Part shown: positions 52,504 to 63,567 of the stretch, in pieces
How the letters are laid out: each line of letters opens with the position of its first letter
How positions within the stretch are numbered: position 1 is the stretch's first letter
DNA from: a virus
Taxonomy: Duplodnaviria; Heunggongvirae; Uroviricota; Caudoviricetes
Virus record (IMG/VR): IMGVR_UViG_3300035492_000080
Location: 1 to 64,000 of that record
Direction: 5' to 3' (one strand)
DNA length: 64,000 nt
Notes under the pieces: generated by a model
Database searches by the model: none
Seen by the model: only the letters and a program-made list of their open reading frames with translations
Told to the model about the DNA's origin: nothing
Position numbers and translations under genes: made by a program

Positions 52504-52505
52504 AT

Positions 52506-52523
52506 GTGGAAAAAAATTTCCAC
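52506..52523. repeat. perfect palindrome GTGGAAAAAAATTTCCAC
   Basis: Seen directly after stop of 51982..52503. Confidence 0.6.
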
Positions 52524-52736
52524 ATTCTCCCCTGTAGCCCTCTAAAATCAGGGGGGTCTAGTTGGCACATATATAATAACACCTGTTTCCCGCTCTTCAT
52601 ATTGCATACCCAATATATTGCAATTCCCCTCATATTGCCCTTCCTAATTTCTCTATTTTTTTTTTTCTAAAAATTCAAATAGGGACATTCCATATTAGCT
52701 GATCTTCCATATTGGAAATATCCAATCCTCCTTACA

Positions 52737-52778
52737 CCCAATCGGGGTTTCTTATTAGGTTTCTCATTGGGTTTCTTA
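52737..52778 (+). repeat. three tandem units GGTTTCT(T/C)ATT
   Basis: GGGGTTTCTTATTAGGTTTCTCATTGGGTTTCTTATT. Confidence 0.5.
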
Positions 52779-53190
52779 TTTTCCGCGAGTATTACTATGA
52801 GTGTTTAGCCACCCTCCAGGGTGAATTCCCACTACTAACATAATTTTAAAATATCCACTAGTAAAAATCCAATTGTATTTACTAATTACATCAATTCATA
52901 TTGATAGACAACCTCTATTTGAATAGTGTCCTCATATTATAGGTGGCTTCTATTGTGTACAGCATATTGATAGACAACATATATTGGAATGTGAACATTC
53001 AATTTATCAAACATCATGCCAACTCCCCATATTGGGTGGTCAATACTCATATTGTATTTATCTATTATATTGGGTGTATTACATAAAGGATTTATATTGA
53101 ATTGTGGCATATATGTTGCTTATGTTTATTATTAGATATAATTATATGTTTTAAGTGTGTAATAAATAAAGTTAATAAGTGGGTGGGCTT

Positions 53191-53280
53191 AACCAATGCC
53201 TACCATTACTAACCAATAGGCGTTATTATTAACCAATGCCTACAATTACTAACCAATTATGGGAATTACTAACCCGACAA
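53191..53280 (+). repeat. four and a half tandem 20-bp iterons beginning AACCAAT, flanked by AT-rich DNA
   Basis: AACCAATGCCTACCATTACT / AACCAATAGGCGTTATTATT / AACCAATGCCTACAATTACT / AACCAATTATGGGAATTACT / AACCCGACAA. Confidence 0.7.
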
Positions 53281-53490
53281 GGTATTTATTAACTAAATGG
53301 CCGTTATTATTAACAATTACACAAAAACAATAAAGCGGGGGAGCATATTGGAGGGAGTTGCATATTGGACAGCCTTTCATATTGTGTTGTGCATATTGGC
53401 TGTAATGCTTGTATATTGCGGGCTGTGGGGCATTCTGAGGGGGGTAGAATGCACGTTCTGTGCTAACTAGTGGGTATGTATTGGGAGGCA

Positions 53491-53518
53491 ATAAAAAGGC
53501 CCGCCAAAGGGGCGGGCC
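53491..53518 (-). terminator. rho-independent terminator for minus-strand small-gene block
   Basis: GGCCCGCC-aaagg-GGCGGGCC hairpin with TTTTTAT on minus strand. Confidence 0.55.
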
Positions 53519-57163: not shown

Positions 57164-57360
57164 TATTTCATCCTCAATTGATTCTTGGCTGTGCTAACAG
57201 CATCGGATTCGTCTTGTGTGTGATAATCGGCCTCTGGCACTGGACCTATGCCAGCATAAGAGAATCGGACACGGAATTCTTGCCACACGCTGTCGCGGTA
57301 AATAATCGCCCGGTCGCCTTTGGCGTTTTCAAATGTTAGATGCTTGCGAAGTGCCATCAC
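57163..57360 (-). CDS. hypothetical protein
   Basis: 65 aa. Confidence 0.3.
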   Translation of the reverse strand: MMALRKHLTFENAKGDRAIIYRDSVWQEFRVRFSYAGIGPVPEADYHTQDESDAVSTAKNQLRMK

Positions 57361-57538
57361 TTATTACCCCTGCGGATTAGTTCGAGTGTTTCTTCCTCGC
57401 GTTTCCTCACAATGCATTCGGCGTGGTTTGGGAAAAGTGCCGTATAGTCTGAAGGCTTTCCGCCAAACCTTCTAGCGCGCTCGGCTGCGCTAGGTTTCAA
57501 GACTACCCTCAGCCCGCAAATATTGCATTTTGCCATGT
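57359..57538 (-). CDS. small zinc-ribbon protein (59 aa, below ORF-track cutoff)
   Basis: MAKCNICGL...NHAECIVRK; ATGA overlap with downstream gene. Confidence 0.3.
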
Positions 57539-57541
57539 TAG

Positions 57542-57712
57542 ATAACCTCCAAAACTGTTAAAGCAAAAACAGTTGCGAGCAGGAAAAAGCCAGCGGCGAT
57601 GGCGAAAGCCAGAAGCATATATCCTGTGCCAGTGAAAGCAAAAAATAACATCACAAAAGCCAGAACAAGAAACATCACAGCGAAAACACCATTTAACAGC
57701 TTCATCCGCTAC
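57542..57712 (-). CDS. small hydrophobic membrane peptide (56 aa)
   Basis: MKLLNGVFAVMFLVLAFVMLFFAFTGTGYMLLAFAIAAGFFLLATVFALTVLEVI; two TM helices. Confidence 0.3.
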
Positions 57713-58325
57713 CCTCTGAAAATTTCCTTTCGACAGGCGCCATTCTATAGAAAGTTTTGAGCATGGATAATTGAATGTTTCTATTAAACCAATAGGAATA
57801 ACCTATCGCCTCGGAGCATGACAAATGGAAGGAAACGCGCGTGCGAATAGCACAGCACCGCTTGCCCGTCAATACACTGGACATCCACACAGTATGCTCT
57901 AAAACCTTCTATTTTGCGTTTTAAGAGGGTTTTGTCGTGACCCGCTACCCTTGCCTCAGATTCTTCCGATCTCACTTTTAAGAATGTTTCTCATCTAATT
58001 AGGAAGTGTGAATTGATAGGCTGTCACTATGGTGGAGCGACCTGGGCGAACGAGTGACGATGAAATAAAAGCTTTGCATTCTGTGAAAGCATTTCCGTAT
58101 AATATGCACATGGCGGGAAACGCAGGCATAAGGGAGGCCGAGCACCGGAGACAAACACTGGGGGAGCCTGCGATCTATGTTGGCATAGAATTTGCTTTAA
58201 CAAAAACTATGCCAACTATTTTTATTGACAGCTGCACAGTTTTTATGGGAAGCTGATACAAATTTTCGGCACCCGGTCACGGGAGGCCCGCCTGCGCCCT
58301 AAAGGAAAATAAAGTTAGCCTTCTA

Positions 58326-58345
58326 ACTATTAGTGAGCTAATAGT
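58326..58345. promoter_or_regulatory. perfect inverted repeat ACTATTAG-tgag-CTAATAGT (operator-like)
   Basis: Read directly; lies in intergenic region upstream of the minus-strand small-gene block. Confidence 0.5.
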
Positions 58346-58381
58346 GCGCCAGCTATCGACAGCTAACTAATTATTGCCTAG

Positions 58382-58407
58382 CTATTAATTAGCCTCCTAT
58401 TAATTAG
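58382..58407. promoter_or_regulatory. two copies of near-palindromic CTATTAATTAG (plus related CTAACTAATTA upstream)
   Basis: gCTATTAATTAGcctcCTATTAATTAGttgg. Confidence 0.5.
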
Positions 58408-58527
58408 TTGGCTAATTTTTGGTGACGATCCCAGCAAATTCCTTCCTGTTCAATACAAAAAGAGAGAAGACACTTTCATCCTCTCTCTTATCAAAAGCGC
58501 CACGTTCATAATTTCTCTCGATCAAAA

Positions 58528-58610
58528 CCTATCGAGTATTAATTTCCAGCGCGAGAAACCTATCGAGTATTAATTTCTCTCGACCAAAATCTATCGAGTA
58601 TTAAAATTTC
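58528..58610 (+). repeat. three direct repeats CCTATCGAGTATTAAT(T)TTC at 31-32 bp spacing, each flanked by a CTCGA..TCGAG inverted half-site
   Basis: Copies at 58528-58546, 58559-58577 and 58591-58610; tctCTCGATcaaaacctATCGAGtat palindromic arrangement. Confidence 0.6.
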
Positions 58611-58953
58611 AAGTGGCAACAGTCTGCTTGTTGAGGGCCATATCGTCTTTTACCTTCGACAAGAAAGCTCTTTCATCAACATCTTGATAGTCAATAACTA
58701 CCACTTGAACCTCTGGGAAATCAGACCTGATTTGGTCCAGTGCTCTTGTAAAGTTATACTCATCATCTATTTCATAATCTAGGCACCCGTGGTCTGGGTA
58801 CACCGTCTTTTCAATCGGTTTGCTTAGAAGTGAATTAAATAAATTCTGTGCGTAGTCATCGCTCATTGTGATGAACGGATAAACCACATGCTTATCAATG
58901 TAGATTTTGTGCAATCGAAACCTCCAACAGGGCGGACTAAAATATCCGCCCAT
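58609..58953 (-). CDS. hypothetical protein
   Basis: 114 aa. Confidence 0.35.
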   Translation of the reverse strand: MGGYFSPPCWRFRLHKIYIDKHVVYPFITMSDDYAQNLFNSLLSKPIEKTVYPDHGCLDYEIDDEYNFTRALDQIRSDFPEVQVVVIDYQDVDERAFLSKVKDDMALNKQTVAT

Positions 58954-59019
58954 TTTTCATGGGCCTATTAAAATATCCAAGTAAAAATATCCTGCCAAAC
59001 AAGTATCCGGCCAAGTATC

Positions 59020-59367
59020 CTAACCAGCAATTACCATATTAACTCCCAAGGCTGAACTTACCGCTTCAACAAAAGCTTCATATATTATTCCTTTATCAAA
59101 TTGGAGTTCAGCTTCTACAGGGACTACCAGCAGCTTAAATCCAGCGGACTCAACCATATCCCTTAGTTGAAAAATCTGATCAAAATGTATAACACACACT
59201 TTAGGGAAGATAATACTCTCAGGATCAACCAGATATCCGGGAAGGGGACCATCTTCTGATGAACCACCAATCATATGGATTATGTTTTTCAGTTCATGGT
59301 TTGGAGAAGATGCGAATGGAATTGAAGAATGTGATTCAACAAACAGCCTGATAACTGGTTCGCTCAT
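59020..59367 (-). CDS. hypothetical protein
   Basis: 115 aa. Confidence 0.35.
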   Translation of the reverse strand: MSEPVIRLFVESHSSIPFASSPNHELKNIIHMIGGSSEDGPLPGYLVDPESIIFPKVCVIHFDQIFQLRDMVESAGFKLLVVPVEAELQFDKGIIYEAFVEAVSSALGVNMVIAG

Positions 59368-59666
59368 GAAGTCTCCTTTGAACTAAGGTACAAATCCCAG
59401 AAGAATTTGATTGGGTGATGGATTATGCGCACCTTGAATGACAGTTGTTCTAGATACCCAACCAATTTTATAAGCCGATCATGACTAATCACTCCCACTG
59501 TTGGGTATACATCAACACTATCTAAATTATCATCTACACCAGACAATCGAATAAATTGATTAAAAATGTTGACCGCAATAGCACTGTCAGTTGTTATGTA
59601 CGGACACAGAGAGCCCTCCTGTACATGGAGGGTGATTAGATTGCCATCTCCCAGATTATCATCCAC
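59364..59666 (-). CDS. hypothetical protein
   Basis: 100 aa. Confidence 0.3.
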   Translation of the reverse strand: MDDNLGDGNLITLHVQEGSLCPYITTDSAIAVNIFNQFIRLSGVDDNLDSVDVYPTVGVISHDRLIKLVGYLEQLSFKVRIIHHPIKFFWDLYLSSKETS

Positions 59667-62680: not shown

Positions 62681-63163
62681 CTAAATTACAGGTGGCTGCT
62701 CGGGCCGCGCTATGGGGGCGGCGTAGAGCTTTCGGATTTCCCAAACGTCCGGCAACCCTTTTGCCAGCTGCTGAGCGTTGGCTTCTGCACACCACGCGGC
62801 GCGCTCGGCAGTGCTGTCTTGCCACCAGCGTTCCTCTACTTTCTGCCCTGGCAGGTATCGCACTTGCCACTGCTCCACCGGCTGCTGCTCGGGCGTGTTA
62901 GCTTTGCTAACGTTCTGCGCGGCGTTGGTTTCTAGGCGCGCTTCAACCTTACCGAGTAGTTCCATCATGTATTCAGCAGAATCGTGGTTTCCGCCTTCGG
63001 CATATATCTCGACGACCAAATTAAGCAGATCGTTTAGCTCGGGGTCTGCAACGTTGAAGGCGTCGCGCCGCTCATCCTGCGGCGGAGGAATAGCAGGGCT
63101 GTTTTCCTGCTGAGTGGCGGAGAGCAATTCAACCAGTTCCTCATCCTCTTCTTTCGAATTCAT
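62681..63163 (-). CDS. hypothetical acidic protein (GC-rich)
   Basis: About 160 aa from ATG at 63163 preceded by AGGAGA; the longer ORF-track version would overlap the upstream gene. Confidence 0.4.
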   Translation of the reverse strand: MNSKEEDEELVELLSATQQENSPAIPPPQDERRDAFNVADPELNDLLNLVVEIYAEGGNHDSAEYMMELLGKVEARLETNAAQNVSKANTPEQQPVEQWQVRYLPGQKVEERWWQDSTAERAAWCAEANAQQLAKGLPDVWEIRKLYAAPIARPEQPPVI

Positions 63164-63567
63164 ATTATCTCTCCTATACAAGCATTTCTGATAGTCGTTC
63201 GGTGAGTCTTGCTCGGCTGATCGCCATGCTTCTTGAGTGGGTATGTAATCCCCCACCAACTAGCAATACCTTCACCAAGAGATGCACGATCAATGGGATT
63301 TGGGCTATAACCCCGCTTCACCGCTTCCTGACACAAAGCATAGTAGCGATTGGCTATGAATTCAAGCTTTTCATAGAAAAATAGCACATGGCCAGTTCCC
63401 ATTGTATAGGAAGTTGGCTGCTTGAGTTTCTTCTTCATGTTGTAGCGGTTGATCTTGCGATCTTGAGCTTTCCTCACTAAGCCAAACACACGAGTGATTT
63501 CATGTATCTCACCCATCAAATGTTTGTTGTGCAGCTCAGCAGGAGGAACAAGATTAATCCGTGTCAC
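63160..63567 (-). CDS. denV: pyrimidine-dimer DNA glycosylase (T4 endonuclease V / DenV-like)
   Basis: 135 aa; MTRINLVPPAELHNKHLMGEIHEITRVFGLVRK closely matches the T4 endo V N-terminus including catalytic Thr2 and Glu23. Confidence 0.75.
   Translation of the reverse strand: MTRINLVPPAELHNKHLMGEIHEITRVFGLVRKAQDRKINRYNMKKKLKQPTSYTMGTGHVLFFYEKLEFIANRYYALCQEAVKRGYSPNPIDRASLGEGIASWWGITYPLKKHGDQPSKTHRTTIRNACIGEII

Follow-up and report, generated by a model that had tools for sequence, protein, structure and literature searches.

Palindromes and evenly spaced direct repeats crowd the right third of a gene-free gap in the phage DNA analysed here and raise the question of what reads them. The DNA, in the following called the window, comprises 64,000 nucleotides (positions 1 to 64,000 of the IMG/VR virus record IMGVR_UViG_3300035492_000080, Caudoviricetes) and holds two gene-free hubs. 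The stretch in question, 58284-58610, belongs to the second of them (hub 2). In a sequence-only reading, its elements had been taken for sites bound by a dimeric regulator or for tandem early promoters read leftward. We tentatively favour the view that the dyads and the 31-bp repeats are candidate arrays of DNA sites for a sequence-specific protein that would control transcription in or through the hub, a view which we regard as possible, if short of probable.

Dyads, direct repeats, and terminator of hub 2

Read leftward, the order in hub 2 is gene X, three 31-bp repeats, a terminator, a dyad cluster, a rightward small RNA (sRNA) gene, a TAGAAT promoter region, and a block of small genes. The features on which the argument rests are as follows.

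57706-58608, no strand: hub 2, the whole gene-free gap of ~900 bp inside a long run of small leftward genes
58315-58342, no strand: 28-bp repeat copy A, with dyads TTAGCCTTCTAA (58315-26) and TTAGTGAGCTAA (58330-41); the palindrome noted in the sequence-only reading overlaps it (58326-45)
58351-58372, no strand: linker AGCTATCGACAGCTAACTAATT, containing an additional copy of CTATCGA, which forms the core of the 31-bp repeats, and an exact CTAACTAAT, which is also present in the first hub
58389-58416, no strand: 28-bp repeat copy B, with dyads TTAGCCTCCTAT (58389-400) and TTAGTTGGCTAA (58404-15); it overlaps both copies of CTATTAATTAG
58452-58489, minus strand: intrinsic terminator of gene X, a 13-pair stem (58489-58460) followed by TTTTGTATTG
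58509-58604, no strand: three direct repeats with an exact 31-bp period and the core CAAAAC/GAAAC plus CTATCGAGTATTAA; units 1 and 3 carry an inverted CTCGA(T/C)

The perfect 8-bp-arm palindrome with a TGAG spacer that had been described is present at 58326-58345 (ACTATTAG-TGAG-CTAATAGT), as are the two near-palindromic copies of CTATTAATTAG (58382-58392 and 58397-58407), which are the sole two matches in the 64 kb at up to one mismatch. Both proved to be pieces of the 28-bp direct repeat, whose copies are 79% identical and lie 74 bp apart. Each copy contains two 12-bp dyads of the type TTAGC-NN-GCTAA, four in total, and these dyads account for all three matches to TTAGCNNGCTAA in the window with up to one mismatch as well as for a fourth with two mismatches. 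On its own, the 8-bp-arm palindrome is not significant in 64 kb; the cluster is. Five GCTAA/TTAGC half-sites fall within 110 bp as compared to 0.17 expected, the densest such interval of the sequence (corrected P ~6e-4), and the cluster is 66% AT against a background of 58% for the window.

The 31-bp repeats have in common an A-tract and CTATCGAGT. The sequence CTATCGAGTATTAA occurs at 58529, 58560, and 58591 and nowhere else in the window, in 34-nt units that are 79-94% identical. Three copies had been claimed at a spacing of 31-32 bp, each paired with an inverted CTCGA half-site. The three copies are there, at exactly 31 bp, and the half-site accompanies repeat 1 (CTCGAT, 58517) and repeat 3 (CTCGAC, 58579) but not repeat 2. 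Dyad symmetry as expected of repressor operators was found in both arrays, in the form of the four 12-bp dyads and of CTCGAY-N8-ATCGAG in units 1 and 3. The helical periodicity of AA/TT over the repeats ranks at the 98th percentile of the window. Compared by eye, the consensus sequences of PhoB, LexA, TyrR, ArcA, IHF, and Fis gave no convincing fit, and GGA sites of the CsrA/RsmA type are absent from the window's repeats.

If the repeats were tandem promoters, they would fire either leftward, as had been proposed, or rightward and antisense to gene X. A hexamer scan returned three promoter-like sites in the region as compared to 3.5 in shuffled sequences and, with spacers of 16-18 bp tested, no -35/-10 match at all on the minus strand of the repeats. 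The plus strand offers one weak sigma70-like match in unit 3 (9/12; TCGACC-16-TAAAAT, 58580-58607), and a rightward terminator past gene X (58930-58951) could bound an antisense RNA. However, a leftward start inside the repeats would meet the terminator at 58489-58452 after 20-80 nt, while a rightward reading is antisense to gene X, so that there is no transcribable target. Moreover, the hexamers are missing from the homologous repeats of relatives, and the annotation of phage PAK_P4, which is based on RNA sequencing (RNA-seq), places no promoter at the repeats. Based on the hexamer scan and the comparison with relatives we rejected the promoter reading of the repeats, which is extremely unlikely in either direction. 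A type III toxin-antitoxin system (ToxI-like) was rejected as well: minus-strand repeats and a terminator are present, but no open reading frame (ORF) of >63 aa follows, and the 18-25-nt spacings of relatives are too short for such RNAs.

The hairpin between the dyads and the repeats had been listed among the elements of the hub as well. Its arms, AAGAGAGA (58460-67) and TCTCTCTT (58482-89), are as described and form 13 pairs when G-T pairs are included. What they make up at 58460-58489, however, is not an operator but the intrinsic terminator of gene X, which is read leftward: on the minus strand, the stable stem-loop is followed by the U-tract TTTTGTATTG, 120 nt past the stop codon of gene X.

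Conservation of the hub and its proposed protein-binding sites

Judged by its sequence, the window phage is a myovirus, apparently virulent, and a distant relative of Pseudomonas phages of the PAK_P1-like (Pakpunavirus), Otagovirus, and phiPMW-like kinds. Large ORFs matched the PHROG families of ribonucleotide reductase, terminase, major head protein, tail sheath, tape measure, NAD-salvage enzymes, and DNA ligase, and a cluster of 14 tRNA genes is located at 34.3-36.7 kb. For the structural genes, nucleotide identity is no higher than 66-68%, both with Pseudomonas phages from the Pakpunavirus, Otagovirus, and phiPMW groups and with phages of Rheinheimera, Erwinia, and Pectobacterium. The sequence of the window recurs with 100% identity on an 89,218-bp metagenome contig of the Joint Genome Institute (JGI) and on two Logan contigs. 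No close relative was detected by megablast among 50,697 phage records, and none by a protein-based scan of viral contigs; exact-protein look-ups returned solely contigs 100% identical to the window, and a 15-mer of the 31-bp repeat gave single chance matches only in viral contigs. A closer relative was thus not found in phage, viral-contig, or plasmid collections.

Viral and metagenome contigs were anchored on the conserved core GAGCACYGGAGRCAAAC and filtered for extended homology, which let us assemble homologous hubs from MAG1, PAK_P4, phiMK, phiPMW, Amme-3, Bitten, and PN09 and from the metagenomic loci L029, L081, L119, L152, and L157. In the matching Pseudomonas phages, the match likewise lies in a gene-free gap of 630-800 bp among opposite-strand small genes. 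The same order of modules recurs in MAG1, phiPMW, Amme-3, Bitten, PN09, L152, L081, and L119 and has been kept in Pakpunavirus, Otagovirus, phages of P. putida, and metagenomic relatives alike. It comprises a leftward TAGAAT promoter, a palindrome of the type GTGC-GAATA-GCAC (57837-53 in the window), and a sigma70 promoter with a small RNA; in most hubs a second promoter with its RNA, annotated by RNA-seq as PAK_P4as16; a cluster of TTAGC..GCTAAC units (e.g. TAGCTTGCTAACCAATTAG in MAG1, AATTAGCAAGCTAACTA/TTAGTTAGCTTGCTAATT in Bitten, and TTAGCGTGCTAACC in L152); often a purine/pyrimidine hairpin; and 2-4 copies of an A-tract with CT(G/A/C)TC(C/G/T)AGT, adjacent to the 3' end of the gene on the right or to its terminator.

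In six distant relatives, this last module takes the form of 2-4 copies of AAAAA-N-CTGTC[C/G]AGT at the same position, and the repeats of the window are its local form. CTATCGAGT is one or two bases off the CTGTCGAGT of Bitten, PN09, and L152, and L081 also has a 31-bp spacing. Variants of the repeat core within the family are CTATCGAGT (window), CTGTCCAGT (arrays in MAG1), and CTCTCTAGT; phiPMW has none of them. By this sequence comparison, the 31-bp repeats are homologous to a family-wide feature. The expectation that the repeats recur in related phages was therefore borne out for the motif sequences in distant relatives, but copy number and spacing (18-47 bp) are not conserved, and the phasing that had been read as a sign of regulator binding is thus not shared by relatives. 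Six Pakpunavirus sequences agree throughout in the TAGC cluster and the RNAs but differ in the promoter flanks and in the spacers between the repeats.

The elements are genome-unique and conserved in position and motif; protein binding and any effect on transcription are what we infer from this pattern. Several observations argue for double-stranded DNA as the form in which they are recognised. The motifs are unique and clustered in 64 kb, and their sequence rather than their pairing has been kept over large evolutionary distances. Folded as RNA, TAGC-NN-GCTA would have to close loops of 2 nt, which is impossible. The terminator precedes the repeats in several relatives (Amme-3, phiPMW, and L119), which puts them outside the 3' untranslated region (3'UTR) of the gene on the right. 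In PAK_P4, the abundant RNA of the hub does not extend into the TAGC cluster, its annotation ending before or at the edge of the cluster. A conserved motif with variable copy number and spacing is the pattern expected of protein recognition sites, not of RNA stems. The hub carries small RNAs, terminators, and promoters in both directions and so evidently serves in transcription; hence a complex of DNA and protein controlling transcription would be the most economical role.

In the mechanism we propose, one or two sequence-specific proteins, encoded by phage or host, would recognise the dyads and the 31-bp repeats as double-stranded DNA. The bound multimers would build a nucleoprotein complex at the junction of two leftward transcription units, adjoining the rightward sRNA genes and the leftward TAGAAT promoter. 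Together with the terminator, this complex might act as a roadblock or insulator, and/or activate or repress promoters 100-800 bp away. Of the dimeric regulator originally suggested, the broad sense survives: a non-coding hub with unique, clustered, partly dyad-symmetric, and recurrent motifs, probably read by a multimeric binder. The promoters, the phasing, and the location do not, the last because the elements are not immediately upstream of the minus-strand small-gene block but 600-900 bp away from it, with the sRNA gene and the block's own TAGAAT promoter in between.

Several points weigh against protein-binding sites. None of the 30 small proteins flanking the hub has a Pfam or PHROG DNA-binding domain (helix-turn-helix (HTH), ribbon-helix-helix, or other), and the HTH proteins annotated in MAG1 and Amme-3 have no credible homologue in the window. 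The arrays overlap no recognisable promoter; the nearest credible ones, that of the small RNA (58074-58103) and the TAGAAT at 57742-47, are 200-850 bp off. The spacing of 18-47 bp among relatives weakens strictly cooperative binding on the same face. Across hub 2, all available contigs of the window phage are 100% identical, so that conservation within the species is uninformative. The anatomy of the hub fits an origin-like or a DNA-entry element about equally well. Finally, as single strands both the repeat region and the dyad region fold better than shuffled sequences (z = -2.6 and -3.1, respectively), making a role at the RNA level conceivable.

In such a role, hairpins formed by the repeats would function within the 3'UTR of gene X, the palindromes would provide stems of a rightward non-coding RNA (ncRNA) ending at 58420, or both. 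The repeats of the window do lie between the stop codon of gene X and its terminator, and a hairpin with a T5 tract at 58387-58420 could end a rightward RNA. The positions of the repeats in Amme-3, phiPMW, and L119, the 2-nt loops, and the end of the PAK_P4 ncRNA annotation short of the TAGC cluster all contradict this, however, as does the conservation of the sequence motifs without compensatory changes. We consider the RNA-level reading very improbable.

A module resembling hub 2 was encountered in a setting less typical of a phage, at 4600-5180 of L030 (IMGVR_UViG_3300028786_000012). It combines a small-RNA-like element carrying a TTGACT-N17-TAGAAT promoter with four TTAGC-type units and GACCCCTGTAGGGG direct repeats, and stands directly upstream of parA on a 46.8-kb contig that has no proteins in common with the window in the 8 kb compared. 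This context suggests a replicon- or partition-type cis region. Neither the hub of the window nor the L030 module matched any plasmid in PLSDB.

Might the hub then be a partition-type centromere or operator for a ParB-, KorB-, or KorA-like protein? The TTAGC/GCTAA half-sites equal those of the IncP-1 operators for KorA (GTTTAGCTAAAC) and KorB (TTTAGCSGCTAAA) (PMC2680271), and the L030 arrays adjoin parA. The resemblance is short, however, and the half-sites are separated by 2 bp as opposed to 0 or 1 in TTTAGC-(0/1)-GCTAAA. No ParA, ParB, KorA, or KorB was found near the hub, and the phage has a virulent appearance. Hence this explanation is hardly credible, and protein-binding sites that serve transcription continue to be our preferred reading.

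Small RNA, promoters, and sigma54-like motif

The remaining features of the hub and its neighbour on the right are listed below.

57742-47, minus strand: conserved leftward TAGAAT-type promoter region at the left hub edge, before the small-gene block
58074-58103, plus strand: sigma70-type promoter TTGCAT-N18-TATAAT, driving sRNA-A
about 58108-58222, plus strand: conserved structured small RNA, here named sRNA-A
58181-58196, plus strand: TGGCATAGAATTTGCT, within the left arm of the 3' hairpin of sRNA-A and outside 58284-58610; it matches the sigma54 -24/-12 consensus
58387-58420, plus strand: hairpin AATTAGCC...GGCTAATT followed by T5, a minimum-free-energy structure (z = -3.07 for 58300-58430) and a possible weak terminator for rightward transcripts
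58609-58953, minus strand: gene X, 85-114 aa depending on the pipeline, without a known domain; its stop codon abuts repeat 3

Over 57300-59400, DNA similarity to deposited phages is limited to the non-coding stretch 58092-58235, which is ~75% identical to 134 Pseudomonas phage records, as compared to 66-68% for the capsid and terminase genes. An alignment of 12 relatives supports two helices of sRNA-A with compensatory changes. The helix CGGGC/GCACCG shows five swaps from G-C to A-U, and a small hairpin (GGC/GCC, GGTC/GACC, GAC/GTC, GCCCC/GGGGC) always carries GGA in its loop, a look-alike of a CsrA/RsmA site. An Rfam scan of the hub, at gathering and at permissive thresholds, returned no family, including for sRNA-A. 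The homologous hub of PAK_P4 holds promoters and the RNA-seq-annotated ncRNA PAK_P4as16. Arguably, the repeats are less striking than sRNA-A and than the sigma54-like motif with its restriction to the hubs.

Three further observations concern this part of the hub. Metagenome pipelines call a 75-aa ORF at 58029-58256 (plus strand), which overlaps sRNA-A and has no PHROG match; it is probably not protein-coding, since its apparent homology to relatives spans three reading frames and both strands. At 58219-58255, where relatives have the second hub promoter (TTGACA-N16-TAGAAT), the window carries a 21-bp tandem duplication (TTTTTATTGACAGCTG / TTTTTATGGGAAGCTG). There the second hub RNA seems to be reduced or lost, because TTGACA is kept but a matching -10 is absent. 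The palindrome GCGCGTGCGAATAGCAC (GTGC-GAATA-GCAC, 57837-57853) is conserved upstream of the sRNA promoter in PN09, L029/L033, Amme-3, and L152 and present in diverged form in phiPMW and L081.

In three distant genomes, TGGCAY-N5-WTGCW, a match to the sigma54 -24/-12 consensus, is almost restricted to the two gene-free hubs. All seven unique copies of MAG1 are located there (0.3 expected), as are three of five in Amme-3 and two of three in the window (53105-53120 and 58181-58196, both on the plus strand). The MAG1 copies (L166/L167) are at positions 90, 145, 861, 1074, 12981, 12999, and 13150, and every copy within the terminal repeat is paired with a WTAGC-N3-5-GCTAW dyad.

This distribution raises the possibility that the dyads and repeats form an enhancer, i.e. 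upstream activating sites that bind the activator of sigma54-type TGGCAY-N5-WTGCW promoters in the hub. The match at 58181-58196 is exact in its -24/-12 elements (GG-N10-GC) and lies 120-420 bp from the arrays, and relatives differ in the N5 spacer but not in GG and GC. In MAG1, the distance from the minus-strand copies to the TAGC cluster and the repeats upstream of them is 30-390 bp, as is classical for enhancers. Three dyad sites are a typical layout of an enhancer. Sites of the enhancer-binding proteins NtrC, NorR, and PspF resemble the hub in that several dyads occur 100-400 bp from a -24/-12-type match with A-tract bending between them, and a sigma54-like promoter has a precedent in Pseudomonas phage YuA (PMC10914365). 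The hub differs from these systems in that its promoter is putative and its orientation inconsistent among relatives, where the motif appears on either or both strands. Moreover, the motif doubles as a conserved hairpin stem in which substitutions fit RNA pairing, and the only exact hub-2 copy of the window faces the arrays, which places them downstream of the promoter. No activator gene was found, although no genome-wide search for one was made. Taken together, an enhancer is quite unlikely. We give just as little credence to the wider idea that both gene-free hubs are sigma54-dependent transcription centres, with the TTAGC dyads and the A-tract/CTNTCNAGT repeats as binding sites of the activator. 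If this were true, hub RNA or early gene expression would be tied to the signalling state of the host.

Gene X is one of three consecutive small genes (58609-59666, minus strand; 85-114, 115, and 100 aa) that appear to be weak paralogues with a common FP-V-VI--D motif. Its start is ambiguous, with 114 or 85 aa depending on the pipeline, and a TTG start spaced from a GGAGG is also possible. The three paralogues had no family match, and their profile gave nothing significant against PDB sequences. Between gene X and the next gene (58930-58964), terminator-like hairpins overlap on both strands: GGGCGGACTAAAATATCCGCCC followed by ATTTTTC on the plus strand and GCCCATGAAAAATGGGC on the minus strand. 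At 63160-63567 (minus strand), the window has a gene for a pyrimidine-dimer glycosylase like T4 endonuclease V (Pfam Pyr_excise on the JGI gene call).

The first hub and comparison with known systems

The first hub occupies 52504-53480, where the rightward gene block meets the leftward one and the cumulative GC skew reaches its maximum. It contains seven YTAACCAAT units with an exact 20-bp period (53189-53317), eleven CATATTG boxes, and, at 52530-52570, CCCCTGTAGCCC and AGTTGGCAC; a bidirectional terminator bounds it at 53498-53518. At the syntenic junction, the MAG1 record has a direct terminal repeat of 1,225 bp, and for PaP1 a redundancy of 1190 bp was reported (PMC3652863). By synteny with MAG1, the first hub (52.5-53.5 kb) appears to correspond to the terminal-repeat region. 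Hub 2 lies 4-5 kb inside this terminal-repeat hub, and 12.8 kb inside in MAG1.

The two hubs have motifs in common. In the window, sites resembling CTAAC(C/T)AAT cluster solely in the two hubs, and of the WTAGC-N2-5-GCTAW dyads of MAG1 five are in the terminal hub, two at hub 2, and none elsewhere. All seven leftward early promoters of the 41-nt family (PMC4309531) in MAG1 are located between the terminal repeat and hub 2, and therefore the hub stands at the inner boundary of the early region. A genome terminus or packaging site was rejected for hub 2, as the homologous hub of MAG1 is internal by 12.8 kb and that of PaP1 lies ~12.6 kb short of the record's end. The JGI contig ends at 57036, within an ORF, an end that stems from a break in the assembly.

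PAK_P1-like phages are used in therapy trials, and the non-coding DNA of the group has barely been studied; published are dispersed 41-nt promoter repeats and a few RNAs defined by RNA-seq. In the hub, a gene-free module of ~0.6-0.9 kb with a structured small RNA, two families of repeat motifs, and terminators has outlasted the divergence of nearly all neighbouring genes. This persistence implies an important cis-acting function early in infection, be it transcription control, the start of replication, or genome entry. A protein that reads the repeats, if identified, would provide a handle on the early-to-middle transition and a conserved target for engineering or attenuating therapeutic phages; the value of the lead depends on finding this binding protein. 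Repeat-rich non-coding control regions are a known kind in phages, and no description of this module, its motif families, or their conservation across genera was found in the literature searched.

The 41-nt promoter repeats of PAK_P1-like phages (Henry et al. 2015, PMC4309531) are found in the same phage group and the same early region, and one copy of the family drives the second hub RNA in Pakpunavirus. In contrast to the tandem repeats of the window, which lack such hexamers, they are dispersed sigma70 promoters (TTGACA-N17-TAGAAT).

Iteron arrays such as those of RK2 oriV, P1 oriR, lambda ori, and P4 ori/crr consist, like the hub repeats, of 3-5 direct repeats with a conserved core and a roughly helical spacing, beside an AT-richer segment and active promoters. 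P4 ori and crr also have a second cluster of related motifs ~5 kb away, as in the window. If hub 2 were an iteron-type replication origin or cis-replication element, an initiator would bind the direct repeats, the AT-rich dyad cluster would melt, and the rightward promoters would activate or prime replication. The regular 31-bp period with its helical periodicity, the AT content of the adjoining dyads, the strong rightward promoters just upstream, and the annotated PAK_P4 ncRNA ending at the edge of the TAGC cluster are consistent with this, as is the L030 module, whose order directly upstream of parA is plasmid-replicon-like. The hub differs from iteron arrays in lacking a DnaA box or IHF consensus, and the GC skew keeps its sign across the hub in both the window and MAG1. 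No initiator gene was found nearby, the polymerase and primase genes of relatives lie far from the hub, the repeat spacing of relatives is irregular, and similarity to PLSDB plasmids is missing. In addition, the array of the first hub, with seven units at exactly 20 bp and at the extreme of the GC skew, is the more iteron-like of the two. An origin is thus unlikely, but it is an explanation to be taken seriously beside the protein-binding sites that we favour.

Other parallels are offered by the left terminal repeat of T5, whose regions RR1-3 are a candidate injection stop signal. As a DNA-entry or boundary element of this kind, hub 2 would form the inner edge of a first-entering early region, and its repeats would bind a factor of host or phage that pauses entry. 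Both systems have gene-free blocks of hundreds of bp in an early ORFan region near a terminal repeat; in both, untranslated repeat regions are better conserved than the surrounding ORFs and separate regions share motifs, inverted repeats in the case of T5, and in both the function is putative (bioRxiv 10.1101/866236). The placement of the first hub over the terminal repeat, of hub 2 inside it, and of the MAG1 early promoters between the end and hub 2 agrees with such a role. Two-step injection, however, is not known in this phage family, further sigma70 promoters are annotated past the hub in relatives, and the L030 context beside parA does not fit, so that a T5-like entry element is very unlikely. 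The hub also differs from RR1-3 in lacking the paired DnaA boxes and in encoding a conserved structured small RNA, and the window family is contractile-tailed, with ~89 kb and a terminal repeat of ~1 kb in relatives. In anatomy, the T5 repeat regions nevertheless appear to be the closest analogue of the hub.

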